This document shows, piece after piece, positions 8,996 to 64,000 of a stretch of DNA of 64,000 nucleotides. The position numbers were made by a program, and so were the translations under genes. Each line of letters starts with the position of its first letter. The first letter of the stretch is position 1. The notes beneath the pieces are model-generated. The model searched no databases. It was not told the origin of the DNA and worked only from the letters and a program-made list of their open reading frames with translations. Origin of the DNA: a virus (Duplodnaviria; Caudoviricetes); IMG/VR virus record IMGVR_UViG_3300030330_001640, positions 3,123 through 67,122 of that record; one strand, written 5' to 3'.

Positions 8996-9014
8996 TTACT
9001 ATTTAGTAAAAACG

Positions 9015-9022
9015 TGTAATTA
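9015..9022 (+). promoter_or_regulatory. class II promoter-like core TGTAATTA
   Basis: core motif in the intergenic gap before the 9110 operon; upstream element not matched at 14-nt spacing. Confidence 0.45.
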
Positions 9023-9109
9023 CTATTAAAGTAGATTATACGTAAACTATAAACCAAAACCCTTAAACATAGAATCATAAATTAATTATAAACTTAAAAA
9101 ATTATTAAC

Positions 9110-9433: not shown

Positions 9434-9445
9434 AACTAAAAAATT

Positions 9446-38400: not shown

Positions 38401-41400
38401 GTGTGGACTGGTGTTGAAGGCGCTAATTACTGGGAAGGTATAGATGAGTCTTTCGTAAATGGTTTCTTTTTATCTACATTAATGCACATGCCTGCTATAG
38501 CTAATCAAGCTGTTATACAACCTTTTACTAAATCTGATACAAATCAAAGATTAGGAGAAATAGCTGAAAAATTAGCTGAGCTTAAATCGTACAAAGGTAA
38601 ATCATACGAAGAGTTAACTGATAAAGAAAAAGAAGAAGTTGATAAGCAGGTTGCTGAATTAGGCTTGCAAGCAGAAGAGTTATTAACTAGAGAATTATTT
38701 AAGGTAGATTTACTTACCAATGAACAAAAACAAAGATTACTAGAAATAAATAGATTAGATTTAGAAGCTCGTAAATCATACGAGATAATAATGGCTGATA
38801 GAAGTATAAAATCTGAAGATAAAATAAAAAGATTAACTGAGATAGAACAAGGTATAGAATCAAGAAGAGGTGAAAAGGATAAAATACTAGCTACAGTTAA
38901 TCCAGAAGCTGCTGAGAAAAAGTATAAAGAAAGCATGCAAAACATTAAAGATCAAGCTGATCTTGCTAACGAAATGGGTGGAGTTGAAGTAGAATTATAC
39001 GAACAAACTGATGAGCAATTTCAAGAAGATCAATCTAAAGATGAACAAAATAAATCTGCTGATGAAGTAGCAGATATAACCGCAGAATCAGAGGCTACAA
39101 TCGTTACGTTAACTGAGTCGATTGAAGAATCTGACAAAAATATAAAAGAATCTAAAGATAAAATTACTGAGACAAGAAAAGAAATAAAAGATATAAAGAA
39201 CGATAAGAAAAAAAATGACAATCAGAAGCTGAAAGAAATTGATAAAAAGAAAAAAGAGATTGACAAGGAAAAGAAAAAAATAATAAACGAAAGTAAGAAT
39301 AAAAAAGATGCTGAAAATTTAATAAGAGATAAAGGCGTACTACAAACAAACGTAAAAGTTGGGGCAAGTATTTTAAAAGATAATCCTTATGGTAGAATGA
39401 GACCTATATACGATAAAAACGGTAATCTTACTAAACTTAAACTATATGTCAATAAAGATAAGTCTATTGCTGATGGCATGTGGACTACAGGTGCTCATGA
39501 AATGATCCACGCTGTTTTTGCTAATACTATAAAATCAGATCCAGCCATGAGATTAAAACTTGGTGGAGCAATGGCCAAGATACTTAAAGGTAAAAATATA
39601 GAATTTAAAACAATGTCTGCTGCTGATATGTTTAATAAAAGGGTGGCTCAGTATAGTATCGATAAACAAGGTGAAGAAGCTTTAGCTATAGCTTCTGAAA
39701 TGTTAATAAAAGGAGATATAATACTAAAAGAAAGTACGTTAGGTAAGTTAGGTAGTATATTTAGAAGATGGTCTATGGATAGATATGGTACGACTTTTAA
39801 TTTTAATAACTCAAATGATATATTAAATTTTATAAAAGACTATCATTATTCTATTAAAAATAATAAACCAAGTAAAGCTATAGCAAAAATGTTAGCTAAA
39901 GGAGCTAATGGTAAAATGTTTGAAGGCGCTAAAACACCGCAAGATAGATCTAATTTAGACATGCATAGCGCTGTAGTTGGTAAATCTATAGAATCAGATC
40001 CTGATTTAAGACCGTTTTTTGATGATGTGGTTAAAGATAAAGGTGGGAAAGTTAAACATAGAAATCATGAAGATTTTAAAGCTTCCCCAGAATATATAGA
40101 AGGTTATGAAAAAATAGTTGATACTAATAAATTAAATGGTATAATACAAGCAGGCATGACAGAAAGAGGTTTACCTCCAGATGCGTTAAAAGATTTTACT
40201 AGAAAAGTTAAAGAAGAATTAGGTATAAGATACTTAAAAAATTATAATGTAGACAAAAACGACAGTTTATTCGGTTGGTTAACAGGTGTAGCAGGTGGAC
40301 AAGGCCAATCAATAATATATAGAGCGAAAGGCGATGTGATGAATGAGTACAAAAAACAAGTACCTAAGACATCTATAGATAAACCTATAAGTGAGTCTGG
40401 CACAGTAGCTGACGTAATACAAGCGGAAAAAGATGTGTTAATAGATAAAATTGAAAACGCAGACATGTCACCTGAATTATTACAAGAGTCTGTTCAAGAT
40501 GTTAATGACTTAATAATGGTAATGGATATGCTTGGTTTTTCAAATAATGTTAAGCAAGCTGTAAAAGATATTGTTAAAAGATCTAATATTAATTTGGATA
40601 ACTTAACTTATAAAGGTGTAAGAGATTTATTACTATCTGTTCAAAGTAAAGCTACTACTGAAAAAAATGTTGTACCTACAGGACCTTTGTTTGAAATATT
40701 AAATGCTATATCAGCTGAGTTTGGAGTTGATCCCCTTAGAATATTAGCTAAACAAGATTTAAATGCTGAACAAAGAAAAGCAGCACAAGAATATATATAT
40801 AATAAATCTACCAACGATGATGGTTCTTTTAATACAAGTTTGCTAGATATATTACCTGAAGGCCAAGACAGAGATGGTAGAGCCACTGGTGTTGCTAATA
40901 CTAAATTAGGGGAGTTCTATACTAAAGGCGATAGACTTAAGGTAAGGGAAGGCGCTAAAAAAGGTTTAGGCCAAAAGTTCGCTCAAAATAAAAGAACTAA
41001 CGTAACTAGAGAGCAGTTATTAGGTTTGTTTGGTATAAATACTGATGGTACTTTTCAACCTGGTACTAAAGCAGATGGAGCTATTAGAGAGCTAATAGTT
41101 CAAGTATCTCAATTAGCAGCTAATCAAGAAATAAGATTAGATGCTGTAGAAAATAGAGTAGAAGCAGCTAGTAATATAGCTAGATTAAAAGATGGCACTT
41201 CTTTAACTATGTACTCAAACCCTCCTAAAATTAATACTAAACAAAAAGTCGAGTTGGCAAAACAACTTTTCGATAAAAATTCAAATGTTTATGCTGAAAA
41301 TATACCAACAATACGTATTCAAACATTAACGCACATTTTAAAGTATGGTGATGATATAAAAAAGCTACAAGAGAAAAGACAGAGAATTATATATTACGAC

Positions 41401-44400
41401 GCTCCATCACCACTTAACCCGGATATAACAATGGGTGAACAGTTGAAACTTGATGTAGATGACTTCTTAAAACAGTATCCACAATATTACGATCAATTAA
41501 GAAATACAATGACTGGTGGAATAGGGATAAGTACTTTCTTTTCTGTAGAAAACTTTGAAAAAATGTTTCCTAGAGAAAAGTATGAACTTGGCGGATTATT
41601 TGCACAACAATCGCTTCCAAGAAATAGTTATACTTTTAAAAGCGATACAAAAACTGGTAAAAAAAGAAGATTTAATCCAAAGACTTTAAATAAAAAAGAT
41701 GACTCTAAACAAAGGTTAGATATACTTTACAACTTTGCTAAAGCAATGGAGGGTTACGTAAAAACAAATAAAAATCCTAAACCAGGGAATATTTACTTAT
41801 TCTCATTAATGGCATCTGATACTGTTAATAATCAGAATGGTGCTATAACTAGAATATTATCTCCATTTAGTTTTTATACTATAATGAAAAATGGTCAGCC
41901 AGATACAACTAATATAATGACAGAAGAGCACGCTGGTCCACAAAAGAGTATAATGGATATGTTAGTTAACGCAGCTAGAGTAGGTAAAGTTGATACAGTT
42001 TGGCCTATAGTTGAAGCTGTATTTGCACAAGGAACTTTATTAGATGTAATTGATAAAAGATTAAAAGACGTTAAAAATAGAGATGGTAAAAATCTTCAAG
42101 AAAATTTACCAGATATATTTTGGGATAGCATAGCAGAAAGAGTACTTGATGGTAAACTAGATGATCTACCACAAGGCTCTATAGCTATGGTTAGATATTT
42201 TGTGGCTGGTAAAGAGTTAAATATAGACATAATAAATACCATAAAATGGAAAAACGGTAAAACACTAGCCGAAATATTTGGGGTTAAAGTAGATGGTGAG
42301 ATATCACCAACTATATTTCAAGCTCAATATGACTTAGTATTAGATTATTTATCAGGTAATATAACTAAAGAAAAATTAGCTGAAGCTGTTAATAAGTTAA
42401 ACATAGAAGGTATAAACTATGTTGATGCTGTTAAAGAAGCACGCGATGTTAAAACAGGAGTACTTACATTGAATAACAATATGTACGATAGCTATAGTAA
42501 ACCTGTTAAAGTTAGAGGTATGTCTACATTTGATTTTGATGACACGTTAGCTAGAACTAAATCAGGTGTTAGGTACACAATGCCAAATAATACTGGTGAG
42601 CCAGCGCCTGGCAGAAAAGTTATATTCTTAGCTGGTAGTGCTGGTAGCGGTAAATCAAATGTTGTTAAGCAGTTAGGTTTACAAGAAAAAGGTTTTAAAA
42701 TAGTAAACCAAGATATAGCTTTAGAGTGGTTAACTAAAAATAGTGGACTACCTACAGATATGAGAGACTTTACACCTGAGCAAGCTAGTAAATGGGGAGA
42801 ATTACAATGGGAGGCTAGAGATATAGCACAACGTAAAGCTATTAAATTTAGAGGTAGAGGAGATGGTGTTGTGGTAGATGGCACAGGGGCAAGTACTGTT
42901 TCTTTATTTACACAAGCTCAAAAATATAAAGACGCGGGATATGATGTTAAAATGTTGTTTGTAGAAAGTTCTTTAGATACAGCTTTAGCTAGAAATAAAG
43001 CTAGAAAAGAAAGATCGTTAAAAGATTTTATAGTTGAACGTAACTGGAAAGCTGTACAAAAAAATAAAAAAGCTTTTAAAGAAGAGTTTGGTAATAATTT
43101 TACAGAAGTAAATACTGATAACTTAAAACAAGGTGATGCTATGCCTAACAACGTTGTCGTAGCTATAGATAACTTTACTAGTGGTTACATAAAAGGTAGA
43201 TTAACAGCAGAAGAATTTGCTAGCAAGGGTGGAGATTTATTAGATCAAGGCGCTTCATTTGATTTTTCTGAATTTAATAAAGTTGTAGATGGCACGCCAG
43301 GTCCTTTACTTGATAAAGCTAGAAACAGAGCTAAGAAGTTTGGTACAAAAGATATGTTTGTTTTAACGGCTAGACCTCAACAATCTGCTTTTGCTATACA
43401 ACAGTTTTTAAAAGGACAAGGTTTAGATATACCAATAGAAAACATAACTGGTTTAGCTAATAGTTCTGGTAATGCTAAAGCACAGTGGATGTTAGATAAG
43501 TTTGCTGAAGGATATAACGACATGTACTTTGTAGACGATGCTCTACAAAATGTTGAAGCTGTAAAAGCCGTACTAGATCAATTAGATATTAAATCTAAAG
43601 TAGTTCAAGCTAAATTAAAAGATCAAGGTAAGTTAGTAGAACCAGGTAATAATACTATGTATAGCAAAGTAGTTAATCCTGATAACATTAATATAGATAA
43701 AGAGTTTAATAATATTCTTGAGGTTAAAAAAGGTGTTGATGCTAATAAAAGGTTTTCATCTGCAGAAGCTAGAAAAAGAGGGGCTAAATTTAGATTAAGA
43801 CTTTACATACCACCATCAGCAGAAGACTTTAAAGGTTTATTATATTATTTCTTACCTAAAGGTAAAGAAGGTGAAAAGGCTTTAAAGTTTTTCGAAAAAA
43901 CATTATTAAAACCTTTTGCAAGAGGTATTAGAGCTTGGAACTCGTACAAACAAAATATGGTTAACGAGTATAACGATTTAAGAAAAAAATTTCCAGATGT
44001 AACTAAAGTTTTAAATGATAGAGTACCTGGAACTAGTTTTACAAATGATACCGCTATAAGAGTTTATTTGTGGACAAAAGCAGGATTTGATATTCCAGGT
44101 ATATCAAAAGCATTACAAAAAAGATTAGTAACTCACGTTAATGGAAACCCTAATTTAAAAGCGTTTGCTGATGGCTTATCAAAAGTTACTCGTAGAAAAG
44201 ATGGTTATCTTCCGCCAAATAAAAATTGGATGATGGAAGCTATACCCACTGATTTAAGAAATCTTGTAGACAAAGTAGGTAGAAAAGAGTTTTTACAAGA
44301 GTGGATTAATAATAAAGAAGAAATATTTTCTCAAGAAAATATTAATAAAATAGAAGCCTTGTATGGCTCAGACTTTAAATCAGCTTTATTAGATATACTA

Positions 44401-46011
44401 TTCCGTATGGAAAATGGTGGTAATAGAAAGCAAGGAAAAAGTAAATTAGTTAATAATCTTACTGATTGGATAAACGGGTCTATAGGTGCTATTATGTTCT
44501 TTAATATGAGATCTGCTTTATTACAAACACTATCAACTGTTAACTTTATAAACTGGAGTGATAACAATATGTTCAAAGCAGCAGCAGCATTTGCTAATCA
44601 AAAACAGTTTTGGCAAGACTTTGTAATGTTATTTAATTCACCAATGTTAAAACAAAGAAGAAAAGGTTTGCAAACAGATGTATCAGCAGCAGAATTAACA
44701 AAGTCATTTAAAGAAAGAGGGTATAGTCCAACTACAGTTATTAGTTATTTATTACAAAAAGGTTTTTTACCTACGCAAATAGCAGATAGTTTTGCTATTG
44801 CTTTTGGTGGCGCTAGTTTTTATAGAAATAGATATAACAAATATATTAAACAAGGTATGTCTGCTAAAGAAGCTCATGATAAAACTATGTTAGAGTTTCA
44901 AGAGATAGCTGAAGAAACTCAACAGTCATCAAGAGAAGATTTAGTATCACCACAACAAGCTGGACCATTAGGTAGGTTAATATTGGCTTTTCAAAATGTT
45001 ACAATGCAGTATGGTAGGTTGACTAAGAAAGCCTTGTCTGATACTGTTAATGGTAGAGGTGATATGAAAACTAATGTGTCAAAGTTAATATACTATGGTA
45101 TGGTGCAGAATGTAATATTCGCTGCACTACAGTCTGCTTTAGCATTTATAATGTGGGGCGACGATGAGGAAGAGATAAAAGATCAAACAACTAGAACAGC
45201 TAATAGTGTATTAGATTCTTTCTTACGTGGTACTGGAATATATGGAGCTATAGTTTCTACAATTAAAAATACTATAATACAATGGGATTTACAAAGCAAT
45301 AAAGATTATGGTAAAGCTAGACCCGAAAAAATACTATTAGAAATAGTTAATATATCCCCGCCAATAGGTAGTAAGCTTAGAAAAGTAATGAACGCTTATT
45401 ATGCTGAAGAATTTAATAGAGGTTTATCAGATGAGTTGGGATTAAGATTAGAAAATCCAACAATAAAAAAGTGGGCTAGTCTTGTAGAAGCTGCTACTAA
45501 TATACCTTTAGCTAGATTACTTAATAAAGCTAATAACTTAGAAGAAGCGATAACTGGTAATCATGAACTGTGGAAAAGAATAGCTATGTTTGCTGGTTGG
45601 AGTATGTGGAATATAGGCGTTGAAGATGAAGAAGTAGTAGCTGCTAAAGAAAGTCTAGCTGAGAAAAAAGAAATTGAAAAAGAAAAAGAAAAGGAAGAAA
45701 AGAAAATAGAGAAAGAAAAAGAAAAAGAAGAAAAGAAAAAAGCAGAAGAAGAAGAGAAGAAAAGAAAAGGTATTAAAACTGTAAGATGTTCTGGTATAAG
45801 ATCTAATGGTGAAAGATGTAAGTTAACAACTGAAACAGCTGAAAAGAAATATCTGTGCCCACATCACATGGAATTTACAGATGGTATGGACAGAGATGGC
45901 GATGGTATTAAAGAATATAGATGTACTTTTATTAAGAAAAACGGAGAACAGTGTAAGATGAAAGGTGAGTACGGAAAAGAAAAAAGATGTTATCATCATG
46001 TAGACAAGTAA
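35443..46011 (+). CDS. giant (3522 aa) multidomain ejection protein with metallopeptidase, HAD phosphatase, P-loop kinase and C-terminal zinc fingers
   Basis: HEMIH at 39496; DFDDT at 42532; GSAGSGKS at 42634; LTAR and FVDD HAD motifs; two C-x9-C..C-x2-H repeats. Confidence 0.75.
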   Translation: MGKIYRLSNGGLVTVMVDDETNFFNILKERNLTAELVNDPNTEYDNVPSYKVSLSSNDTQEDPTVEVEQKTTLNQEISTINKVVEIIPKEQVKDYVIGEGLDFAKSTPNEILTYQNAKDYFNQRSEVMSYFNSDDYKELDTMDKVVNNSMTKNSGYLSLDIYGPVSTWDENATMRNKEVRDKIFAGTHGYNPYEDKLYKLQDPVEVDLGAKTYALKQQTSYQTFNSFMESLENPKKYPEYVDETGKVISMEPSTKTSDMFPDSGISEDAGMVAYNTPPILDVNALSKYEKDFVDTFGPIYYSYGFNMEQAKGFHLIKSWDQQAVKVTAMNGKSITIDVDVKGDTAKEQLKIFMDFVNANTHSKGGEDMLGEMFYEETKPTEEQIHNIETNFTVANEIIDKMRIAFNMPDATDAEIINIYNDFSRYRENEIGDITKHSDAYHSDLDIRFEGSNINWSLEKVKYFQDALANELGENYTDFISEYIGALNHIVSYEKDFYEGENGVILEAFLQDSKAVSEFVKGEGVYMSDFYKDKPKEFFTKHAMGQTLWKELLESEYYKTWRKNWIKQNKNNYDQTVDINSKKLYRFNETIDIIQKNASEHVEFFSSNAFDRSELQEVVYKDMVLDIKNVEKEIAESLVEIDFLTETMDDLYSTQIAMEEELISMGINQYDVLEDIAEKYNITSQEDFLSNENAMAEFREYEKKYSDLYNEYEILITQTIPANNKLLYEKYDVIDTSAWKAEEMKLMMDVLGRNSEWGTYYSTIGGIAIMETVIGGTAALVSSVTDAYLELGEYHPAMQMVLEDLNSWGDSLGTEVKKRAEYGRSTLALPTQWGDITGVSSAMDYLVTNTLQTAPILILASASGGYALPVMGVYSGSQKYDNMRRSRNLFEDTAGMFGQDFTLGEMLLNSVVTGTAEGLTEKITFGQWRKLGYFANNPAAKLGFEKALRKSIYTPKKMAQFVAYNGKQFTEEGVSEMIADFSSNTMDVWTGVEGANYWEGIDESFVNGFFLSTLMHMPAIANQAVIQPFTKSDTNQRLGEIAEKLAELKSYKGKSYEELTDKEKEEVDKQVAELGLQAEELLTRELFKVDLLTNEQKQRLLEINRLDLEARKSYEIIMADRSIKSEDKIKRLTEIEQGIESRRGEKDKILATVNPEAAEKKYKESMQNIKDQADLANEMGGVEVELYEQTDEQFQEDQSKDEQNKSADEVADITAESEATIVTLTESIEESDKNIKESKDKITETRKEIKDIKNDKKKNDNQKLKEIDKKKKEIDKEKKKIINESKNKKDAENLIRDKGVLQTNVKVGASILKDNPYGRMRPIYDKNGNLTKLKLYVNKDKSIADGMWTTGAHEMIHAVFANTIKSDPAMRLKLGGAMAKILKGKNIEFKTMSAADMFNKRVAQYSIDKQGEEALAIASEMLIKGDIILKESTLGKLGSIFRRWSMDRYGTTFNFNNSNDILNFIKDYHYSIKNNKPSKAIAKMLAKGANGKMFEGAKTPQDRSNLDMHSAVVGKSIESDPDLRPFFDDVVKDKGGKVKHRNHEDFKASPEYIEGYEKIVDTNKLNGIIQAGMTERGLPPDALKDFTRKVKEELGIRYLKNYNVDKNDSLFGWLTGVAGGQGQSIIYRAKGDVMNEYKKQVPKTSIDKPISESGTVADVIQAEKDVLIDKIENADMSPELLQESVQDVNDLIMVMDMLGFSNNVKQAVKDIVKRSNINLDNLTYKGVRDLLLSVQSKATTEKNVVPTGPLFEILNAISAEFGVDPLRILAKQDLNAEQRKAAQEYIYNKSTNDDGSFNTSLLDILPEGQDRDGRATGVANTKLGEFYTKGDRLKVREGAKKGLGQKFAQNKRTNVTREQLLGLFGINTDGTFQPGTKADGAIRELIVQVSQLAANQEIRLDAVENRVEAASNIARLKDGTSLTMYSNPPKINTKQKVELAKQLFDKNSNVYAENIPTIRIQTLTHILKYGDDIKKLQEKRQRIIYYDAPSPLNPDITMGEQLKLDVDDFLKQYPQYYDQLRNTMTGGIGISTFFSVENFEKMFPREKYELGGLFAQQSLPRNSYTFKSDTKTGKKRRFNPKTLNKKDDSKQRLDILYNFAKAMEGYVKTNKNPKPGNIYLFSLMASDTVNNQNGAITRILSPFSFYTIMKNGQPDTTNIMTEEHAGPQKSIMDMLVNAARVGKVDTVWPIVEAVFAQGTLLDVIDKRLKDVKNRDGKNLQENLPDIFWDSIAERVLDGKLDDLPQGSIAMVRYFVAGKELNIDIINTIKWKNGKTLAEIFGVKVDGEISPTIFQAQYDLVLDYLSGNITKEKLAEAVNKLNIEGINYVDAVKEARDVKTGVLTLNNNMYDSYSKPVKVRGMSTFDFDDTLARTKSGVRYTMPNNTGEPAPGRKVIFLAGSAGSGKSNVVKQLGLQEKGFKIVNQDIALEWLTKNSGLPTDMRDFTPEQASKWGELQWEARDIAQRKAIKFRGRGDGVVVDGTGASTVSLFTQAQKYKDAGYDVKMLFVESSLDTALARNKARKERSLKDFIVERNWKAVQKNKKAFKEEFGNNFTEVNTDNLKQGDAMPNNVVVAIDNFTSGYIKGRLTAEEFASKGGDLLDQGASFDFSEFNKVVDGTPGPLLDKARNRAKKFGTKDMFVLTARPQQSAFAIQQFLKGQGLDIPIENITGLANSSGNAKAQWMLDKFAEGYNDMYFVDDALQNVEAVKAVLDQLDIKSKVVQAKLKDQGKLVEPGNNTMYSKVVNPDNINIDKEFNNILEVKKGVDANKRFSSAEARKRGAKFRLRLYIPPSAEDFKGLLYYFLPKGKEGEKALKFFEKTLLKPFARGIRAWNSYKQNMVNEYNDLRKKFPDVTKVLNDRVPGTSFTNDTAIRVYLWTKAGFDIPGISKALQKRLVTHVNGNPNLKAFADGLSKVTRRKDGYLPPNKNWMMEAIPTDLRNLVDKVGRKEFLQEWINNKEEIFSQENINKIEALYGSDFKSALLDILFRMENGGNRKQGKSKLVNNLTDWINGSIGAIMFFNMRSALLQTLSTVNFINWSDNNMFKAAAAFANQKQFWQDFVMLFNSPMLKQRRKGLQTDVSAAELTKSFKERGYSPTTVISYLLQKGFLPTQIADSFAIAFGGASFYRNRYNKYIKQGMSAKEAHDKTMLEFQEIAEETQQSSREDLVSPQQAGPLGRLILAFQNVTMQYGRLTKKALSDTVNGRGDMKTNVSKLIYYGMVQNVIFAALQSALAFIMWGDDEEEIKDQTTRTANSVLDSFLRGTGIYGAIVSTIKNTIIQWDLQSNKDYGKARPEKILLEIVNISPPIGSKLRKVMNAYYAEEFNRGLSDELGLRLENPTIKKWASLVEAATNIPLARLLNKANNLEEAITGNHELWKRIAMFAGWSMWNIGVEDEEVVAAKESLAEKKEIEKEKEKEEKKIEKEKEKEEKKKAEEEEKKRKGIKTVRCSGIRSNGERCKLTTETAEKKYLCPHHMEFTDGMDRDGDGIKEYRCTFIKKNGEQCKMKGEYGKEKRCYHHVDK

Positions 46012-53113: not shown

Positions 53114-53141
53114 AAAAAAAGGGAGCAATTAAGCTCCCTTT
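53111..53141. terminator. bidirectional intrinsic terminator between the convergent arms
   Basis: AAAGGGAGC/GCTCCCTTT stem with A run before and T-rich tract after. Confidence 0.85.
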
Positions 53142-53345: not shown

Positions 53346-55211
53346 TTAAACAATTTCACAATTACCACCAGCGCAAGCTAACTCGCCTGATAGATCTGTA
53401 TTATCATCTGTTTCAACAACTTTAGTTAAATCAATATTAGATAATACTTTGGACATTTTATTATAATCAGACTCGCTAATGTCCTCAAACGGAGCCTGAG
53501 TGTACGTACCACCATCATATGGTAGTACTGATAATCCATTATAATAATCTCTATTACTCCACATCCACTCACCTGCCTTTTCCCATTCATCTTTTTTCAA
53601 AGATATTGTAGCAGATACATTATGTGTATTACTACCTCGTCTATGACCAGGTTTAATCCACTCTTGTGCTACACGTTTTACTCTTTCAAGAGTGTCAAAT
53701 GGTGATTCAGTTCTGAGTATTGATTCAGCCGGAGCTTTCTGTGGTACAGAAATAACAGCTGTATCGTGTGGCCTGAAGTACTCATCTTCAATTAATTCAG
53801 GATGTGACTTAGATAAATATTTATATATGGCCTCGTTTTTCCCTACGCGCATCCTACGAACATAATAATCATTATGCCATGCATGAATACCCGAAGACGT
53901 TCCGAGGACCAGAGATGTTGTCCCTGCAGGTTTTACGGTTGTACATCTAGCCGAAGATTTAATTCCTAAAATCTTTGCTACTCTCGTGTTTTCTTTTGTT
54001 ACGATATTTGCAGCGGCCTTCATATCCATTTGGAGCACAGCGGCACTCCCTATTCCTGTCATTGACACACCTATAAGAGCGTCTTTCTCTGTTGTCTCTT
54101 TCCATATTTCTCTAAGATAATGGAAGTCGGTATACGCAGCTTGTAACGTTCCAATAAACGCTGCTGCTTTAACTCTATTATTAAAGTCTTCTTGATCTTT
54201 AACATCAGATACATTAACTTCACATAGATTACAAAACTGAAACGGCCTAAGCGCTATCTCACAACAAGGATTAGTTCCCCAGTCTTTGTCGTTATTAAGA
54301 TATATACCAGGTTCTCCAGCTCCTGATAATTCAACTCTTTTCCATAAGTCCATAAAAAACTCTTTTGTTACTTTATGTCTCATTAAAACAGCAGAATTAT
54401 TTGCTCTACCTCTTTGTGGGTTAGTTTCCCACCAAGATCCAGATTTACACGCTATCATTTCATTATCAGTGGCTGTAAACAAACTGATTAACGCAGCTCG
54501 TCTAATACCACCAGCTAATACAGCATCTGCTATATGGCATATAATATCGTGTACTTCTAATGAAGTTAAAGCTGTACCGTCTTCTTTAGATTGAAGTATA
54601 CCTTCAACCTTAGTTAAACATTCTTTTAATGGCTGTGGACCAGGCGCTTTACCACCTGATGTCACTAGCCTAGCACCTTTCGGTCTTATGCATGTATAGT
54701 CAAAGTTTACTTTGGAAAGCTTCTTGTTGCTAAGATATGTTTTCATAAGTACTTTAACTGCATCAGACCAACCTTCAATTGAATCACCTATAACAAACCT
54801 CCTAGATCTTTTCACAAAAGGTTTAGTTACGTTAGGTAAATCTTTTATATGATGCTGTTGAACGGAATAACCGACTCCACATCCTGAAAGTAATAGAAAC
54901 ATTATTTCATTAAAAGCTTCTACATCATCTACAGGTAAATATGAACAGTTGTATAATCTGTTTGGACTTACTTGTATTGGTTTACCAGCAAATTGTAAAC
55001 TACGCATTGATGGTAGTATTTTCTTGGTAAATACATATGAATAAGCTTTTCTTATTTCAATCTCCAACTTTGGATAATTCTTAATATGCATCTGCATATT
55101 TCTATCAACTAGCTCGTCCCAAGTTTCTCTACGATTTAACTCAGGCATATACCTAGCATATTTCATATGAACAGTGATATCAGAAAGTATGTTTCTATTT
55201 ATATCTTTCAT
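53346..55211 (-). CDS. nrdJ: class II (adenosylcobalamin) ribonucleotide reductase, monomeric type
   Basis: PSMRSLQFAG, NCSY, GGIRRAA, TNPCCEIAL, CNL, TVKPAGT, C-terminal CAGGNCE. Confidence 0.93.
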   Translation of the reverse strand: MKDINRNILSDITVHMKYARYMPELNRRETWDELVDRNMQMHIKNYPKLEIEIRKAYSYVFTKKILPSMRSLQFAGKPIQVSPNRLYNCSYLPVDDVEAFNEIMFLLLSGCGVGYSVQQHHIKDLPNVTKPFVKRSRRFVIGDSIEGWSDAVKVLMKTYLSNKKLSKVNFDYTCIRPKGARLVTSGGKAPGPQPLKECLTKVEGILQSKEDGTALTSLEVHDIICHIADAVLAGGIRRAALISLFTATDNEMIACKSGSWWETNPQRGRANNSAVLMRHKVTKEFFMDLWKRVELSGAGEPGIYLNNDKDWGTNPCCEIALRPFQFCNLCEVNVSDVKDQEDFNNRVKAAAFIGTLQAAYTDFHYLREIWKETTEKDALIGVSMTGIGSAAVLQMDMKAAANIVTKENTRVAKILGIKSSARCTTVKPAGTTSLVLGTSSGIHAWHNDYYVRRMRVGKNEAIYKYLSKSHPELIEDEYFRPHDTAVISVPQKAPAESILRTESPFDTLERVKRVAQEWIKPGHRRGSNTHNVSATISLKKDEWEKAGEWMWSNRDYYNGLSVLPYDGGTYTQAPFEDISESDYNKMSKVLSNIDLTKVVETDDNTDLSGELACAGGNCEIV

Positions 55212-55332: not shown

Positions 55333-55797
55333 CTAAATTCCCAATCCATATAATTTATTTTTTATAGTTAATAATTCTATTACTTGATCACATTCCTTTT
55401 GGTTTTGAGGCTTATATAAAGTTACACGCGGATAACATTTGTTTATAAATTTTTTAAACAATTTCCATCTCATTGGGAAACTTTCATTAGCTCTACCTTT
55501 TGTTTCAATTATAAAATCTTCTCCAACAAAATCTGGAGTATATTTTATAGGTTGAATTTTTTTATTTCCTCTGTCTACAAACTGCCCTTTACCGTTAGAC
55601 TGTCTTTCATAACTTGAGGATTCAAAATCAAAACCTTCTACTAAAGTATATGTCTTACCTTCGTATTTAGCTTTTATCTTAGCTTTTTTTAACGCTTGAT
55701 ACATATACTTTTCTAGACCGGACGCGAAGGTTACACCGTCATATGTAACCTTCTTAGATCTTACTGGTCCTTTTTTACGTTTAATTTTCCTTTTCAT
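55333..55797 (-). CDS. PD-(D/E)xK endonuclease, T7 endonuclease I-like
   Basis: FASGLE, YTPDF, IIETKG. Confidence 0.75.
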   Translation of the reverse strand: MKRKIKRKKGPVRSKKVTYDGVTFASGLEKYMYQALKKAKIKAKYEGKTYTLVEGFDFESSSYERQSNGKGQFVDRGNKKIQPIKYTPDFVGEDFIIETKGRANESFPMRWKLFKKFINKCYPRVTLYKPQNQKECDQVIELLTIKNKLYGLGI

Positions 55798-56071
55798 CTA
55801 AATGTTCTTTAAGTTCTTCTTGTGCGGTTTGTATATACAATATCGCATCCATAAGTTCTTCTTGAATATCAATTAAATATTTCATTAAACCTTTCATTTT
55901 TGTTGTTCGCTCTTCATCAAGAGTCGTGCCGTATTTTAAGAAGCCTTCATCAGACCTTAACCTAAATTTATCTACAACACGTTTTACAACAGGATCTCTA
56001 AACTCTCCGTTATAATCATCTCTGATTTCAACGATACGACCCTTAGCGTTCATTATTTCTCTACTACTCAT
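55781..56071 (-). CDS. small all-alpha NTP-pyrophosphatase-like protein
   Basis: KYGTTL...QEELMDAILY (EExxD motif). Confidence 0.5.
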   Translation of the reverse strand: MSSREIMNAKGRIVEIRDDYNGEFRDPVVKRVVDKFRLRSDEGFLKYGTTLDEERTTKMKGLMKYLIDIQEELMDAILYIQTAQEELKEHLDEKEN

Positions 56072-56072
56072 A

Positions 56073-56861
56073 TTAATTATTTTTTACAAACGTTCCATTA
56101 ATCATCTTACCTTTTCTATTAACTATTTCAGCGTAAGCTCTTTCAGTACATTCTTCTATTGTTGTACCACAGAGTTCAGCTAAGTTAGTTAATACAACTA
56201 CCATATCACCTATACCGTCCATAATATCATTATCATTATCTTTTAGTATAGCTCTACCAACTTCGCCGGCCTCTTCCATTAGTTTAACATACTGAGTTTT
56301 AGCATCGCCAGATTCGTATATCCCTCTTTGTTCTGCCCATTCTCTAATCATATCAAACATAGGCACATACTCATGTTCAACAATTTCATTTGTTCTGTTA
56401 TTTAAATATTTAGCCATAGCTTTATTATATACATAACATCTATCATTATTATACATAGAGGTTACTGCGTTTTTAATTATCCACTTTGTAAGATCGTTAT
56501 CTAATGTAACGCTTCCATGTTCTGTTTCCCAGCTCATTTCTTGGTTATCCATTAGTTGACCTTTTAATTTGTTAAGTGGACATGGAAATGTTGTTGTTTG
56601 TTCTGTCACATTTATTTTCATATTACTATTAAATTTATTATTATTAAACAATTGACTATATGGTTTCATATCAACTCTGTAACCATATTCTTTTTGAAGT
56701 TCTAGCTCACGTTTAGATATATAATCTATATCTGTAGATGAATCTAAAATTTCATACTCACCTACCTCATATCCTTGTTGACGTTCAACTCTATTGTACA
56801 AGTCGTTTGTAACACCGATTTTTTTACCTGGTATGTGGTATATTGTATATTCTTTACTCAT
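56073..56861 (-). CDS. GIY-YIG-like N-terminal domain fused to a MazG-like nucleotide pyrophosphohydrolase
   Basis: IYHI..KKIGVT..L..R..E N-terminus; KLMEEAGEV...DGIGDMVVVL C-terminus. Confidence 0.7.
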   Translation of the reverse strand: MSKEYTIYHIPGKKIGVTNDLYNRVERQQGYEVGEYEILDSSTDIDYISKRELELQKEYGYRVDMKPYSQLFNNNKFNSNMKINVTEQTTTFPCPLNKLKGQLMDNQEMSWETEHGSVTLDNDLTKWIIKNAVTSMYNNDRCYVYNKAMAKYLNNRTNEIVEHEYVPMFDMIREWAEQRGIYESGDAKTQYVKLMEEAGEVGRAILKDNDNDIMDGIGDMVVVLTNLAELCGTTIEECTERAYAEIVNRKGKMINGTFVKNN

Positions 56862-57531
56862 TTATTTTATCTATTATATTGTTATACAAATGTAAGTTAT
56901 GTGCAAAGTGAAAGTATTCACCAACTAGTAATCCAAGTTCATCAGCAACCATTAATTGTAGTTTTGAAAAACAATATTGGTCATTGCAAAAACCGTACCA
57001 TAGATCGTTAGAACGCATTGTAACACACATATTAAGATGCTGGGCTACAATTGTAAACTGTATAGCATAAGTACATGGTGTATCAAATTCATAATCACTA
57101 ATTTCTTTAGCGTCATATATGCTTATAGCAGCCTGTCTAGTTCTAGGGTTTTTCTTTAACATATCAATAACTATATCTAATTGACTGGTTCTTTCCCATT
57201 GCCAACCGTAATTAGAATTAACATTACCATCTTTGTCAGCCATACGTTTCCATATCTCAGGTACTTTACCATATATATCACCTAGTGTTTTAATGTTTCT
57301 ATCACCAGTTAAATACCAATGCCATTCAGAATCAGCGTAACTCCATTTCCACTTACGTTGTTCACATTTAATAAAGTTATCCATAGGTTTTGTTATTGTA
57401 AAACCTACATTAAATAAAGCTTTAGTATCATCAAAATCAATACCATAATCTAGTATTTGCCTTTTATAATAACTAAATGCTTTATCTGCGTTTTTAAATC
57501 TATTCATATTACTTTCTTTTTCTTGGGTCAT
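56854..57531 (-). CDS. thymidylate-synthase-fold enzyme of the T4 gp42 (dCMP hydroxymethylase) type
   Basis: P.IW..A..G..NSNYGW, catalytic PCT, MRSNDLWYGFCND with Asp at the ThyA Asn177 position, NLHLY. Confidence 0.8.
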   Translation of the reverse strand: MTQEKESNMNRFKNADKAFSYYKRQILDYGIDFDDTKALFNVGFTITKPMDNFIKCEQRKWKWSYADSEWHWYLTGDRNIKTLGDIYGKVPEIWKRMADKDGNVNSNYGWQWERTSQLDIVIDMLKKNPRTRQAAISIYDAKEISDYEFDTPCTYAIQFTIVAQHLNMCVTMRSNDLWYGFCNDQYCFSKLQLMVADELGLLVGEYFHFAHNLHLYNNIIDKINE

Positions 57532-57841
57532 ACATATCTCCCCAAACTGGTTTACGTTTTTTTCTTATTGCTTCTATTTGTTTGTTACTATATTTATCGT
57601 AATAGTATTCGCAATATTTGTAAACTTTTTCCATGACATCTTTTTTGTCATAAGTTTTAGGATCGAGATTTTTTTTACCCTTTATTGTTATACCTATTCG
57701 CCATTGAGAATCACCGTTTACATAATGATACTCTGGGTTTACAACTATATCATTTTCCTCACACCAGAAATAAGGTATTAATCCTTCATATTCTCTTGAG
57801 TGATCTGGAAACTCTGAATTATCATTATCTAACTTTCCCAT
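57509..57841 (-). CDS. hypothetical protein
   Basis: ORF track; overlaps both neighbours. Confidence 0.6.
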   Translation of the reverse strand: MGKLDNDNSEFPDHSREYEGLIPYFWCEENDIVVNPEYHYVNGDSQWRIGITIKGKKNLDPKTYDKKDVMEKVYKYCEYYYDKYSNKQIEAIRKKRKPVWGDMYDPRKRK

Positions 57842-59547
57842 GGCAAATCTCCTACATTAGTCTCAGCTACTATTGGTATATAACTACCAGACTTTGGTTC
57901 CCAGTTAAAATGAGCTTCAGCTTGGTTTTCACCTAAGTTTTGAAATTTAACTTTCAATACTTTAGCTTTAACAGTTTGAGCTTCATAATCTCTATGAACT
58001 AATAACCCGTGGTAGCTAGCGTCGTACCATTCACCACCGCCTTTAATGCTATACATCGTTGGCTCTTCAATCTTACCTTCTTTGTCTCTATACATTTTAG
58101 TAGGATGTGCTACAACAATAACTAGTACATCATACTTTTTAGCAAACGTTTCTATTTTAGTAAGATATTCCATAGTATAACGATTAACATCTTCAGACTT
58201 GCAATCAACATCTCTAATCTTATTAAAAGGATCGATAACTAAACATTTAATACCTTTACGTTTAACAAGCTCAGCGCCTTTACGTAGTACATCTTCAAGT
58301 GTATATCTATCCATATCAATAAAGAAATAATTATCATTAACATGATCAGTTACTTGTTTCCATTTAGCAGTACCAATATCATCTTTAGTTGGCATACCTT
58401 CCCATGTCTTACGTATTAGCTTGTGAGCATGTAAAAAATTAGGTTTGTTTTCTGGTGATGCAAATGCTGTTTTCCAACCGTAGTTTCTATTATAACCTAT
58501 ACACATTTGGTCTACAAAATCTGATTTACCTGATGATGGTATACCTGTTACAGTTATAAACTGTGAAGTATATGTAGAAAATATTTTATCAAAATTTTCT
58601 AAACCAACTTGATAACCAGGTTTAAAACCATTGTGTACAAAGTCTAATAAGTCAGCTTCAAGATCTCGTAATGTTGATACACCTTCAAGTGGTACTTGAG
58701 TAGCAGACGTTATAACTTTTCTAAGTTTTTCTGCCCCGTGTTCTATTAAAAAATCATTAGCATCTTTGTTACCATTGAAGTCTACTAAATAACAAACTTC
58801 TGCACCAAGACGTCTAATAAATTCATACCTTAAAGCTTGACCAGCTTCATCAGCATCAACTGCTAGTATTATTTTTTCTTTATCTTCAAAATAATCTATA
58901 CAGTTATCTAAATAATCTAGATTATTACTATTTAACGTGGCTCCGTTAGGAACTGATATTACGTTTTTAATTCCAGCTTCATGTAACGCCAACGCGTCCA
59001 TTTCGCCTTCAACTATAACACACCAGTCGTAACCTACAATACTATTAATATTATAGAAAATTTTCTCAGCACCTTTATACAGTTTAAAGTTTTTTCTACC
59101 ATCTCTATACTTTATATTGATAAGCTCATCACCCATCATATAATTAAATTGTATAGTATTTTCTTTCTTCCCAGTTTGAGGCATATACTCTTCACCTGTG
59201 GTAACTTTTAAATCACGAAGGGAAGCTGGTGATATACCTCTACTCTCAAACCATTGAACTGCCTTGTCTTTAACTGGTTCAAATACTTCAACCGGTATTG
59301 GTTTTACGTATTCTCTAGTTGCACTACCTTTACGTTGATACGTGTGTAATTGAAAACTATTGTTACAGTTATGACAAGTACCGAGACCACGTTCCCAATC
59401 ATAAGAAGCACATTTTTTCTTCCTATTTTCAGGTTTCCTACATTCGGCAGACCAAGGGCATACACCCTGGGTCTTACCTACTTCTAGGCCATGTTGATTG
59501 AACTTATCAATCACAAATCCATTGATCTCTGTATTCTCTACTTTCAT
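57829..59547 (-). CDS. T7 gp4/Twinkle-type primase-helicase
   Basis: Zn-binding CPW..C and CHNC; TOPRIM VEGEMD and DADEAG; helicase GIPSSGKS and VIDP. Confidence 0.92.
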   Translation of the reverse strand: MKVENTEINGFVIDKFNQHGLEVGKTQGVCPWSAECRKPENRKKKCASYDWERGLGTCHNCNNSFQLHTYQRKGSATREYVKPIPVEVFEPVKDKAVQWFESRGISPASLRDLKVTTGEEYMPQTGKKENTIQFNYMMGDELINIKYRDGRKNFKLYKGAEKIFYNINSIVGYDWCVIVEGEMDALALHEAGIKNVISVPNGATLNSNNLDYLDNCIDYFEDKEKIILAVDADEAGQALRYEFIRRLGAEVCYLVDFNGNKDANDFLIEHGAEKLRKVITSATQVPLEGVSTLRDLEADLLDFVHNGFKPGYQVGLENFDKIFSTYTSQFITVTGIPSSGKSDFVDQMCIGYNRNYGWKTAFASPENKPNFLHAHKLIRKTWEGMPTKDDIGTAKWKQVTDHVNDNYFFIDMDRYTLEDVLRKGAELVKRKGIKCLVIDPFNKIRDVDCKSEDVNRYTMEYLTKIETFAKKYDVLVIVVAHPTKMYRDKEGKIEEPTMYSIKGGGEWYDASYHGLLVHRDYEAQTVKAKVLKVKFQNLGENQAEAHFNWEPKSGSYIPIVAETNVGDLPWES

Positions 59548-61416: not shown

Positions 61417-62172
61417 TTACAGGTAATCAACCACTTGCGAGTACTCAACTTTCTCGATTAACTTATCAATTGCAAGCTTTTTTAGTTGTGAAATACGTAC
61501 ATAAGAGCTACTACCTTTTATACCTAATATTTCAGCGATTTCTTTAGCAGAATGCTTTTCACAATCAAGTCCATATGATAATCTTAATACTTGAAATTCT
61601 TTAGGGTTTAAGTATTGTAACATCAAAGCTTTTATATATATTGATAGTAATTGTTTATTGTAATTACTTTTATCTGGTATATTATACGCAGCACTTTGTT
61701 GCTCTGGCGTACCATCATCAAGACTTGTAAATACTGAGTTAAAAAATAACTCAACAGCTTTTTTATCTTCACCAAAATCTTTTCTAATTTCATTTAGTTT
61801 ATGTTCAGGTATTCTCATGCTACCTCTATTGCTGTCAATTCCTCTACGTATAGCTCCTTTAATTCTTTTAGATAAAAAAGATTTTAAAGTTTTTTCTTGA
61901 TCTTTAGCTTCTAATATTGTATCCCAGTCTATTCTGTCTGCGCCTGCTGTTAAACCATAATTACCTTCTTGTATAAGATCGTTTATAGTCATAACGCCAC
62001 TAGCCGCTTGAGCTGTTGAGAATTTTCTAGCTAAGTTTTCCACAAGTGGTAGAAATTTTTGTATTAGTTGATCTCTACTTAATTCATGATATTCTAAATC
62101 TGGAAGCTTGCTGAGAGTTCTACTCAAATCATGTTTCCATCTAACGTAATTTTGTATATTATACTTTTTCAT
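61417..62172 (-). CDS. phage sigma-70-family factor
   Basis: region 2 LPLVENLARKF..DLIQEGNYGL..IRR; region 4 L.PKE.QVLRLSYGL..KEIAEILG..RISQL. Confidence 0.9.
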   Translation of the reverse strand: MKKYNIQNYVRWKHDLSRTLSKLPDLEYHELSRDQLIQKFLPLVENLARKFSTAQAASGVMTINDLIQEGNYGLTAGADRIDWDTILEAKDQEKTLKSFLSKRIKGAIRRGIDSNRGSMRIPEHKLNEIRKDFGEDKKAVELFFNSVFTSLDDGTPEQQSAAYNIPDKSNYNKQLLSIYIKALMLQYLNPKEFQVLRLSYGLDCEKHSAKEIAEILGIKGSSSYVRISQLKKLAIDKLIEKVEYSQVVDYL

Positions 62173-62605
62173 AGTCTTTTTCTAAAGTTTTAATGTATTC
62201 TAAACACGCTTCCCAGTTTCTATTACTCCAGTCTTTATTAAACCAAAACCAATTACCTTGGAAATCTGGTTGACCCCTGAATCTAGTGTCGTCGATTAGA
62301 ACATCACCGATTAATAAATCTTTTCTGTGCGTAAGTATTAACTTACGTTTTAAGTATGGAAAATGCTCTTCAATCCATTCTCTTTTATGACCCCATACTT
62401 CAGGTCTTGTCCAGGGAGGAGTTGATGCTATAAAAATCTCGTGGTCTGCATTTAGCTTGGCTACAGCTTTTATAGCACCTTCCATTACTGGTAGTGTTCT
62501 GTAGTTTACTACAAGATCTGGTCTTTTACTAAGTTTGTAACCTTGATGTTCCTGACCTTTTTTAAAATCAGTAATAACTCCGTCCATGTCTATATATATT
62601 CTCAT
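62159..62605 (-). CDS. 5'(3')-deoxyribonucleotidase (HAD)
   Basis: IYIDMDGV, IAST, KREWIEEHF, KDLLIGDVLIDD. Confidence 0.9.
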   Translation of the reverse strand: MRIYIDMDGVITDFKKGQEHQGYKLSKRPDLVVNYRTLPVMEGAIKAVAKLNADHEIFIASTPPWTRPEVWGHKREWIEEHFPYLKRKLILTHRKDLLIGDVLIDDTRFRGQPDFQGNWFWFNKDWSNRNWEACLEYIKTLEKDYEKV

Positions 62606-63231
62606 ATTTCTTCGTTTAATCTTTCTTTCTCTTGTTTTAATTCGTCATTCATGTGACGATATATTGTCCTTGGTGTTACATTTAACATTTTTGCAAGCTT
62701 TGATATTATTATCTTATAACCTTCGTAATTAATTTGTATCATAGCTTCATATATATCTGACTTATCTATACCATTCATTTTACCTATTAATTGGCCTACA
62801 ATGCTTAACTTCTCTGATTTAGTTAACCCGCAGTTCCACTTAAATATAATCTTTCTAAGTTTATTTGTTGGTGGTTGTTCTAAATCTACAACACTTAAAT
62901 CATTTATAAGTCTAGCTACATTCCATTTATTAATATTAAAAGTAACAAAACCATTTTGCCTGTCAGTTATATACATCGCAATATCCATAGCATCGTGCTC
63001 GTCCCAATCAGGATTTAAATACCACAATACTAACATGTGCCATTTTAAACTTCTGTAAGTTGTTATTTTAGCTTTACTTCTAAAAAGATTATAACACTGG
63101 TATGTACCATTTTTATAGAACATGTACTTGTCTGTTTCTATATCAGGTATATCTGTAACTGGTTCTCTTCTCCATATTACACGTTTATGTATTAAATAAT
63201 CAAATCGTCTTTCCATGTTACTATATGACAT
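62602..63231 (-). CDS. DNA-binding protein with C-terminal HTH; possible replication-related protein
   Basis: ISKLAKMLNVTPRTIYRHM HTH; start codon overlapped by the inverted-repeat element. Confidence 0.6.
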   Translation of the reverse strand: MSYSNMERRFDYLIHKRVIWRREPVTDIPDIETDKYMFYKNGTYQCYNLFRSKAKITTYRSLKWHMLVLWYLNPDWDEHDAMDIAMYITDRQNGFVTFNINKWNVARLINDLSVVDLEQPPTNKLRKIIFKWNCGLTKSEKLSIVGQLIGKMNGIDKSDIYEAMIQINYEGYKIIISKLAKMLNVTPRTIYRHMNDELKQEKERLNEEI

Positions 63232-63271
63232 AAGCCTGTTACTATTTAGATCTTTTCAGGCTGTTGTCACA
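63224..63271. repeat. conserved inverted-repeat element, copy 2
   Basis: TGACATAAGCCTG ... CAGGCTGTTGTCA (11/13 inverted match); TATGACA-N26-CAGGC-N3-TGTCACA. Confidence 0.65.
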
Positions 63272-63370
63272 GTTTGGTTTTAAGGTTCCTATAATAATTC
63301 TTTTAGAATTATTTTTTTTATAGGGTATTTTGTTAAACTTATCTATTGTTAGTTTTAATCTTTTATTCAT
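63242..63370 (-). CDS. small basic hypothetical protein (42 aa)
   Basis: MNKRLKLTIDKF...; overlaps the upstream ORF. Confidence 0.4.
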   Translation of the reverse strand: MNKRLKLTIDKFNKIPYKKNNSKRIIIGTLKPNCDNSLKRSK

Positions 63371-63473
63371 AATACTTTGCATTTTCTTCCCAGCAATCAC
63401 TACAACAACTAGGGTGATCACCTACGGTTAATTCCGCACCGCAGTGGTCACAATCTGGTTTATCTTTATTCAT
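63363..63473 (-). CDS. small zinc-ribbon protein (36 aa)
   Basis: MNKDKPDCDHCG...CCSDCWE; CxxC..CxxC. Confidence 0.55.
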   Translation of the reverse strand: MNKDKPDCDHCGAELTVGDHPSCCSDCWEENAKYYE

Positions 63474-64000
63474 AATTTCTTATACATTTAAATAGCGGGT
63501 GTCGGTAACTACCTGCTTTAGTTCTTTCAAAAAAAGTGAAGGTGGCACGTTGGCCCATATATTCATGGATATTTTCTAAAATTCTTGCAAGATCTTTATA
63601 ATTATGACCTTTACCTGGTGGACAACCGAACTGGTTACCATCATCATCTTGCATTAGAAACTTACCTAACGTACCGGCTCTCTTGCCTTTACCTTCCTCA
63701 TAACCAACTATATTAGCTTCAGCATCTTCAAAATCTTTGAACTTTCTAAGACTATGTGAACGCTTACATTGATAAGGTGTATCTAATCTTACAATAGAAC
63801 CTTCGTAACCAGCTTTTAAATTAACCGCGTGAGTTAATCTAGCACCATCTTCAGATGTCATTTGTACAGTTGGTACTGTTATAACACAGTAGCTTTCTTG
63901 CAAATTATCTTTAATCCACTTGTCACGTGTACTAAACTTCATCTTTTTATTTACAATGTCATAACAATGAAATTGTACGTTATCGCGTGATTTAGCACGT
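63466..64000 (-). CDS. ATP-dependent DNA ligase, C-terminal part (5' end beyond the window)
   Basis: GYEGSIVR, KRS..L.K.K, OB-fold GKGK..GTLG, YRHP; frame stays open from 63942 to 64000 (..FHCYD..). Confidence 0.9.
   Translation of the reverse strand, partial: RAKSRDNVQFHCYDIVNKKMKFSTRDKWIKDNLQESYCVITVPTVQMTSEDGARLTHAVNLKAGYEGSIVRLDTPYQCKRSHSLRKFKDFEDAEANIVGYEEGKGKRAGTLGKFLMQDDDGNQFGCPPGKGHNYKDLARILENIHEYMGQRATFTFFERTKAGSYRHPLFKCIRNYE

Follow-up and report, generated by a model that had tools for sequence, protein, structure and literature searches.

A predicted dCMP 5-hydroxymethylase of the T4 gp42 type next to a MazG fusion protein in uncultured marine phages

Gene organization of the locus

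We analysed a 64,000-nucleotide stretch of phage DNA (the window), which corresponds to bases 3123-67122 of the 67,122-bp IMG/VR virus record IMGVR_UViG_3300030330_001640. The record is assigned to the Caudoviricetes, is rated complete and represents an uncultured marine virus; coordinates below are window positions unless stated otherwise. The study concerns positions 55333-57531, where four tightly packed open reading frames (ORFs) on the minus strand encode a protein with the thymidylate synthase (TS) fold, a protein ending in a MazG domain, a helical protein named p96 and a DUF1064 nuclease (Table 1). They are part of an overlapping run in the order primase-helicase, p110, TS-fold gene, MazG protein, p96, DUF1064, orf44 and class II ribonucleotide reductase (RNR). 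An earlier reading of the sequence, referred to here as the original prediction, took the locus for a cytosine modification module whose TS-fold gene acts on deoxycytidine monophosphate (dCMP) and is likely to be mis-annotated as thymidylate synthase. Our analysis points to a minimal T4-like route to 5-hydroxymethylcytosine (5hmC).

Table 1. Features at and around the locus, with window positions
Feature	Position	Strand	Remarks
Bidirectional intrinsic-terminator-like hairpin	53118..53141	.	Separates minus-strand replication/nucleotide operon from plus-strand late genes
Class II ribonucleotide reductase, adenosylcobalamin-dependent, nearest the NTP-reducing RTPR type	53346..55211	-	TIGR02505 8e-85 and Pfam RNR domains
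DUF1064 PD-(D/E)XK-type endonuclease	55333..55797	-	PF06356 38 bits vs cut-off 24.7; phrog_190
p96, conserved helical protein of 96 amino acids, genomic partner of the MazG protein	55781..56071	-	No Pfam/PDB match
Three-domain MazG protein, 262 amino acids	56073..56861	-	Residues 1-63 GIY-YIG-clan-like; 80-158 alpha/beta; 167-262 MazG
TS-fold enzyme, predicted dCMP 5-hydroxymethylase (T4 gp42 type)	56854..57531	-	PF00303 8.5e-30; T4 gp42 35% identity
p110, 110 amino acids, without assigned function	57509..57841	-	Between primase-helicase and TS-fold gene; detected in 24/80 relatives
Primase-helicase (Toprim + DnaB_C)	57829..59547	-	First gene of the overlapping-gene operon
NT5C-family 5'(3')-deoxyribonucleotidase	62159..62605	-	PF06941 4e-12; present in only 5/80 relatives

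The TS-fold protein

The longest ORF of the TS-fold gene has 225 amino acids, and the true start is likely the ATG at 57507 (217 amino acids), which follows the stop codon of the preceding gene by 1 base, an arrangement that most homologues share. We aligned the protein with E. coli (Ec) ThyA, T4 gp42, PaMx74 ThyA and Bacteroides phage homologues taken from database records. The match to T4 gp42 extends over 139 amino acids (E 2e-20; E 7e-17 in the phmmer search of the PDB), and the identity to Ec ThyA in the core is 27%. The motif RSNDLWYGFCND aligns with RSNDVVFGFRND of T4 gp42 and with RS(C/A)DVFLG(L/V)PFN of ThyA, and its Asp falls on Ec Asn177. Both this placement and a stretch P-IW--A--G--NSNYGW common to the query and T4 gp42 had been predicted; the alignments bear them out, and the quoted T4 gp42 motifs agree with the database record.

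In the alignments the query has a Cys on the catalytic C146 of Ec ThyA (C148 in T4) and a Glu on the general base E58 (E60 in T4). The catalytic and phosphate residues common to the query, ThyA and T4 are E58, W80, Y94, R126, C146, R166, S167, D169, G173, H207 and Y209. At other positions the query resembles T4 gp42 and not ThyA (N177D, H147T, Q165M, C168N, L174F and F176N). Further, an Asp three residues before the Cys (DTPC) stands in the T4 Asp145 column in phmmer, in BLASTP and in both MAFFT alignments. Among the 12 residues listed within 6 Å of C5 (PMC13326640) the query is identical to T4 at 10-11 and to E. coli at 6. According to Lee et al. 2026 (PMC13326640), N177D marks the use of dCMP, L143D/E marks hydroxymethylation and D169N marks formation of 5-hydroxycytosine (5hoC); the query has D, D and D at positions 177, 143 and 169. 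In the MetaGPA study (PMC8670742) positions 147 and 177 were the top discriminators of cytosine-modified metavirome contigs, and the query has Thr and Asp at these two.

The C-terminus is short, as 9 residues follow the HLY motif compared to 28 in T4, 55 in E. coli and 61 in PaMx74, and the ThyA C-terminal lid segment of 45-55 residues is absent. The best score against the NCBIfam ThyA equivalogs was 86 bits vs a cut-off of 327, and T4 gp42 itself scores similarly.

Pfam and PHROG label the protein a thymidylate synthase and the JGI names do so for its relatives, hence the expected mis-annotation does occur. Taken at face value the gene would encode an ordinary divergent thymidylate synthase, for which these labels speak along with a ThyA as the top PDB match and the presence of an RNR with no other TS. 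Its Asn177, His147 and Gln165 are however replaced by D, T and M and its C-terminal 45-55 residues are missing, invariantly among the relatives, which places the protein outside canonical ThyA; its scores are at least 4-fold below the PRK01827-type NCBIfam cut-offs and also under two TIGR cut-offs. We reject this explanation as most improbable, and the view that the gene belongs to the cytosine-type TS homologues holds on account of the active-site residues, the missing C-terminus and the sub-cut-off scores.

As to the product, the original prediction had named 5-hydroxymethyl- or 5-methylcytosine (5mC), and the residues favour the first and not the second. A dCMP methyltransferase of the Xp12 type would make 5-methyl-dCMP and lead to DNA with 5mC, or to 5-methyldeoxycytidine (5mdC) nucleotides that are deaminated to thymidylate. 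N177D alone turns ThyA into a dCMP methylase (Liu and Santi 1992, as cited in PMC13326640 and PMC8670742). Five metavirome Asp177 homologues yielded 5mdC in vivo, as did the Xp12 enzyme, and the modules hold a deaminase and a PRA-PH/MazG-like gene (10.1101/2024.12.05.627091); thus the product does not follow from Asp177 alone. The phage is AT-rich (~32% GC in the genome) and has no other thymidylate synthase, and a few relatives carry a dCMP-family deaminase between the TS-fold and MazG genes. The Xp12-type PaMx74 enzyme on the other hand has a full ThyA C-terminus, P147, L165, S168 and GLPYD, whereas the query has the T4-like T147, M165, N168 and GFCND. Methyl transfer also oxidises folate to dihydrofolate, and PaMx74 has dihydrofolate reductase (DHFR) and deaminase genes beside thyA while this genome has neither. 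We regard methylation as rather unlikely. Because of the T4-like residues, the short C-terminus, the absence of DHFR and deaminase and the low ThyA scores, we favour hydroxymethylation over methylation.

Conservation of the TS-fold protein and its neighbourhood

The environmental family is very large, as 7999 of 8000 scored candidates had E <= 1e-10 and many were 75-95% identical. For conservation and gene context we fetched 80 of the 509 IMG/VR relatives (62-78% identity to the query). All 80 share the unchanged motif RSND[LI]W[YF]GFCND, and DTPCT was found in 79, the Cys loop of the remaining one having been missed by the motif search. Since the active-site motifs are invariant while the flanking residues vary freely, the signature goes beyond chance. 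The order from primase-helicase to RNR is preserved in about 60 loci, and a MazG-type pyrophosphatase directly follows the TS-fold gene in 76 of the 80, including loci on unrelated phage backbones.

One such backbone is that of L065 (L065:3279-5989; also L059-L061, L072, L076 and L084), where the TS-fold clade is 63% identical and MazG is a stand-alone protein of 100-104 amino acids in the same downstream position. Directly upstream of the TS-fold gene these loci carry a pyridoxal phosphate (PLP)-dependent enzyme (PALP, 7e-12) and two unannotated proteins of ~300 amino acids, which makes this neighbourhood a candidate cytosine hypermodification cluster. In L022 (6660-7076; also L023 and L024) the deaminase (PF00383, 5e-24) separates the TS-fold gene from a stand-alone MazG, a layout that resembles published neighbourhoods of Asp177 TS homologue, deaminase and pyrophosphohydrolase. 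Some close relatives have a 2-oxoglutarate-Fe(II) oxygenase (PF13640) between the TS-fold and MazG fusion genes (L047:2892-3590 and L085:1880-2638).

The C5 adduct might also be a different one: 5-hydroxy-dCMP, which RB69 makes, or some product not described so far. TS homologues with unexpected chemistry are known, as the 5hoC enzymes illustrate (PMC13326640), the fold of the query is unusually short, and the PLP-dependent enzyme and its two companions upstream in the L065 type could point the same way. The D169N substitution diagnostic for 5hoC is however absent: Asp169 is kept in the query and in all 80 relatives, which argues against an enzyme of the RB69 type, and the other shell residues match T4 gp42. 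This makes a different adduct very unlikely.

The closest matches in phage databases were from Bacteroides phages (47% identity), and a search for modification data on these phages found none. The cultured gut phage BF503P2 among them has two TS-fold genes (6133-6939 and 9013-9693), each encoding Asp where ThyA has Asn177; identity to the query is 47% for one of them, and the other is far more divergent (W80K, E58L and G173L). In the search of cellular genomes all matches were in contigs of metagenome-assembled genomes, several of them binned as Bacteroidota, and we found no mention of the TS-fold enzyme in the literature on flavobacterial phages. The hosts of this phage group are probably Bacteroidota.

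The MazG fusion protein

The AlphaFold2 model of the MazG protein, made from an alignment of 19 sequences, has a mean predicted local distance difference test (pLDDT) score of 84.8 and consists of three domains. The C-terminal ~100 amino acids are a MazG domain (PF03819, 25 bits vs a cut-off of 22), a four-helix fold in which the acidic metal-ligand residues E196, E197, E200, D215 and D219 and the motifs EExGE and DxxGD are invariant. The MazG domain filled the match lists of the fold searches. Residues 166-262 matched 1vmg (Z 9.3) and the S-2L protein MazZ (7ody, Z 9.2), the match to MazZ spanning the complete domain with its C-terminal beta-hairpin, and the fold comes nearest to the short phage MazG type to which MazZ belongs. 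DCTPP1 matched at the fold level only. T4 gp56 was considered as a homologue of the domain and rejected, having no sequence similarity to it.

Residues 1-63 have a beta-beta-alpha-beta-alpha topology in the model. Eight of nine homologues showed weak matches to T5orf172 or MUG113 in this domain (E 1e-4 to 0.1, one of them above cut-off), and the window's own copy matched neither profile. T5orf172 and MUG113 belong to the GIY-YIG clan. The GIY-YIG/MazG fusion named in the original prediction is accordingly well founded for MazG, by the Pfam match and the fold, and for GIY-YIG only in part, by the topology and the weak matches of homologues.

In cyanophages MazG prefers dGTP and dCTP, and it has been proposed to recycle nucleotides of the GC-rich host for the AT-rich phage (PMC6850273). 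MazZ, noted for its C-terminal beta-hairpin, produces the deoxynucleoside monophosphate (dNMP) substrate of an adjacent base-modifying enzyme. Because MazZ feeds its neighbour and the cyanophage enzyme prefers dGTP and dCTP, we reason that the MazG domain may convert dCTP to dCMP. The RNR scored under the cut-off of the TIGR02505 RTPR model (285 bits vs 340); an enzyme of this type would yield dCTP directly, which fits a dCTP-hydrolysing MazG. That a MazG next to the TS-fold gene follows the logic of T4 gp56 and S-2L MazZ is in keeping with the expectation.

p96 and the DUF1064 nuclease

p96 was detected in 59-60 of the 80 loci and its family has 2772 representatives. The protein contains QEELMD, and the motifs KYG and QEE-MDA-LY are invariant. 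It is predicted to be all-helical, its AlphaFold2 model being of low confidence (pLDDT 68). Searches of p96 against Pfam and the PDB found no match. It had been taken for a second, MazG-like EExxD protein, a claim that did not survive: no homology was found, and hhalign to the MazG domain gave a 15-column match at a probability of 3.9%. Likewise a nucleotide kinase of the T7 gp1.7 / DUF3310 type was rejected. A DUF3310 protein does take the place of p96 in relative L086, but p96 itself lacks similarity to gp1.7, and DUF3310 matches nothing in the genome. Natural fusions of p96 occur among metagenome proteins, with the GIY-like and middle domains in P0227 and with a MazG domain in P0202, and these suggest that p96 shares a function with the MazG protein.

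The original prediction also counted a nuclease for unmodified DNA to the module. The DUF1064 protein matched phrog_190 'Holliday junction resolvase' (2e-12) and weakly T7 endonuclease I, and its gene sits in a recombination module with Erf, exonuclease and primase-helicase. From these matches it is probably a structure-specific resolvase, and the resolvase-like families and the recombination setting offer no link to discrimination of unmodified DNA; this part of the prediction is given up. A stretch of 110 nt within the gene (55456-55566) is 75-80% identical at the DNA level to endonuclease/resolvase genes of crAss-like gut phages (cr10_1, cr55_1 and cr1_1).

Pathway steps without a recognisable gene

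The 67-kb genome has no ThyX, no second or canonical ThyA, no DHFR (PF00186) and no dCMP deaminase (PF00383), hence it lacks the 5mC kit of the Xp12/PaMx74 type. Family A or B DNA polymerases are also absent from the genome, and replication presumably uses the host polymerase. No glycosyltransferase was found in PHROG and Pfam scans of the minus-strand early genes and the plus-strand ORFs of at least 133 amino acids, many ORFs being unannotated, and neither a carbamoyltransferase nor another tailoring enzyme is present. The sole recognisable kinase is a P-loop domain of the AAA_33 / zeta-toxin type (42616-43059, residues 2392-2539) in a virion-module protein of 3522 amino acids (35443-46011), and this domain is more polynucleotide-kinase- than dNMP-kinase-like. 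The absence of a recognisable glycosyltransferase and dNMP kinase, previously noted for the window, thus extends to the whole genome. The suggested parallel to T4 applies to hydroxymethylase and pyrophosphatase, and not to the gp1-like kinase, the phage DNA polymerase and the glycosyltransferase.

We also counted restriction palindromes, some of which are mildly depleted (CATG 0.72, GATC 0.83 and GAATTC 2 observed vs 12.6 expected). Hexamer palindromes containing C did not differ from AT-only ones, a comparison that is uninformative on modification.

With no dNMP kinase, polymerase or glycosyltransferase recognised, one may ask if the TS-fold enzyme and MazG only reshape the nucleotide pool, the product not entering DNA. 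They could act as a sink for dCTP and dCMP, serving an AT-rich genome or host starvation, or the product could have some other use as with MilA, the CMP hydroxymethylase of mildiomycin synthesis. MilA was a clear match in the PDB sequence search (1.4e-13), the genome encodes an NT5C nucleotidase, and the dGTP/dCTP preference of cyanophage MazG and its proposed role in recycling host nucleotides (PMC6850273) would suit such a sink. A pool sink however needs MazG alone, and the complete catalytic site of the TS-fold protein is strictly kept beside MazG in the 76 loci, which argues that its product matters. Further, the phages studied with an Asp177 TS homologue all place the product in DNA (PMC13326640, PMC8670742, 10.1101/2024.12.05.627091). 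We consider a mere pool function quite unlikely.

Proposed pathway

Homology, the residue signature, gene linkage and the absence of other pathway genes were observed directly. On this sequence evidence it seems fairly probable that the phage follows a minimal T4-like route, in which a class II RNR supplies dCTP, MazG turns this into dCMP, a gp42-type enzyme forms 5-hydroxymethyl-dCMP (5hm-dCMP), and host kinases and polymerase complete the process.

In such a route MazG would split the dCTP made by the RNR into dCMP and pyrophosphate, which would both feed the hydroxymethylase and drain canonical dCTP. The Asp in place of Asn177 would select dCMP, the catalytic Cys would attack its C6, and methylene-tetrahydrofolate would give the carbon. 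Water would then add to the exocyclic methylene with no hydride transfer, a step that we propose because the ThyA C-terminal lid is absent and a polar Asp stands at Cys-3; the products would be 5hm-dCMP and tetrahydrofolate. Host enzymes, or a phage protein that went unrecognised, would phosphorylate 5hm-dCMP, and the host replicase together with the phage primase-helicase would incorporate the nucleotide. As no phage kinase or polymerase is recognised, the pathway must rely on host kinases and the host replicase; the E. coli replicase does incorporate 5hm-dCTP when gp42 and gp1 are expressed (10.1101/2024.12.05.627091). Cytosine in the resulting DNA would be exchanged for 5hmC in part or completely, and the 5hmC would carry no sugar. 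We thus infer substrate, product, MazG specificity and a modification of virion DNA.

Several points weigh against this route. Its main weakness is the kinase: the genome has no match to T4 gp1, Thymidylate_kin or DUF3310 / T7 gp1.7, and strong incorporation in the published in vivo assays depended on a phage dNMP kinase (10.1101/2024.12.05.627091). The five metavirome Asp177 homologues that made 5mdC (10.1101/2024.12.05.627091) also speak against it. As for the protein, equivalence to Ec L143 hinges on gap placement, since the Asp falls on L143 in MAFFT alignment A1 and in an insertion column in A4; there is no equivalent of the phosphate-binding R21, and Gln replaces R127; the query is even shorter than T4 gp42 at its C-terminus; and its top PDB sequence match is a true thymidylate synthase (6auj, 77 bits), above T4 gp42 (65 bits).

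The missing kinase could alternatively be explained if p96 and the GIY-YIG-like and alpha/beta domains supplied gp1-type phosphorylation or discrimination of unmodified DNA, making the cassette a self-sufficient minimal system for cytosine replacement. We hold this to be unlikely; if true, it would reveal new families of proteins that permit base replacement in a phage with neither a polymerase nor a known kinase.

Genome setting

The minus strand carries replication and nucleotide genes and the plus strand late genes, including terminase, portal, capsid, GroEL/GroES and two giant proteins. The chaperonin is of the GroEL type (phrog_5725, 1.7e-134) and accompanied by a GroES-like co-chaperonin, at 7186-8751 and 12633-13220. 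The genome also encodes a ligase, Erf, an exonuclease and a sigma factor. Positions 62783-63935 (genome 65905-67057) overlap genome positions 1-1153 by 1153 bp at 93.6% identity, and the ligase gene is intact at one record end and partial at the other. From this overlap we conclude that the genome is circularly permuted and was closed across a strain variant, its true length being ~66 kb.

Implications

Modified cytosine is a known strategy against restriction, as in T4. Over 500 IMG/VR contigs belong to the phage group, as do thousands of metagenome proteins. Should our favoured reading be true, these highly abundant uncultured marine phages replace C with 5hmC using no more than two recognisable genes. 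Host restriction and CRISPR outcomes would then need a different interpretation, and biases in sequencing libraries and enzymatic treatments of viromes would be possible. The layout without kinase and polymerase further raises the question of which host enzymes accept 5-hydroxymethyldeoxycytidine nucleotides. The label thymidylate synthase that databases give such TS-fold genes would likewise be wrong. It should be noted that the T4 strategy is textbook knowledge and that the Asp177 signature in metaviromes is published; what is described here is a minimal, somewhat unusual architecture.

Comparison with known systems

Of the known systems T4, with gp42 (EC 2.1.2.8; PDB 1b49, 1b5e and 6a9a), shares most with the query: the TS fold, the Cys, Glu58, Asp169, Asp177, Thr147, Met165, Asn168, Asn176 and the Asp at Cys-3, a shortened C-terminus, and a nucleoside triphosphate pyrophosphatase of the all-alpha superfamily in the pathway (gp56 dCTPase/dUTPase). 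T4 also has a GIY-YIG element, segF, beside gene 56, where the query has a GIY-YIG-like domain fused to MazG. The identity to gp42 in the core is however only 35%, and the query has 217-225 amino acids vs 246. Unlike gp56, the pyrophosphatase of the query is a short MazG that adjoins the hydroxymethylase and is fused to two extra domains, and the gp1 dNMP kinase, alpha- and beta-glucosyltransferases, td/frd and DNA polymerase of T4 have no recognisable counterparts in the query genome.

The 5mC module of Xp12 and PaMx74 likewise has an Asp177 TS homologue beside a pyrophosphohydrolase-type gene, and relatives of the L022 type add a dCMP-family deaminase. The PaMx74 enzyme differs in its full length of 298 amino acids with the ThyA-like GLPYD and C-terminus, and in a module with a 5mC-selective deaminase and DHFR. 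RB69 gp48 and DLP3 gp80, the 5-hydroxy-dCMP synthases, resemble the query in the TS fold, in N177D and in having an acidic residue in place of L143, but they carry D169N, and the arabinosylation genes are absent from the query genome.

MazZ of the S-2L Z-cluster, a (d)GTP diphosphohydrolase that feeds PurZ, resembles the query MazG in being short, in its two extra C-terminal beta-strands, in a tendency to N-terminal fusions and in being encoded beside a nucleotide-modifying enzyme, whereas it serves a G/A base pathway with another partner enzyme and has no sequence-level match to the query. Finally, the MetaGPA Asp177 homologues (eLife 2021) have, like the query, a non-His residue at 147 and Asp at 177, and come from environmental contigs annotated as thymidylate synthase; studies of that type did not describe the short marine clade of the query or its MazG fusion partner.

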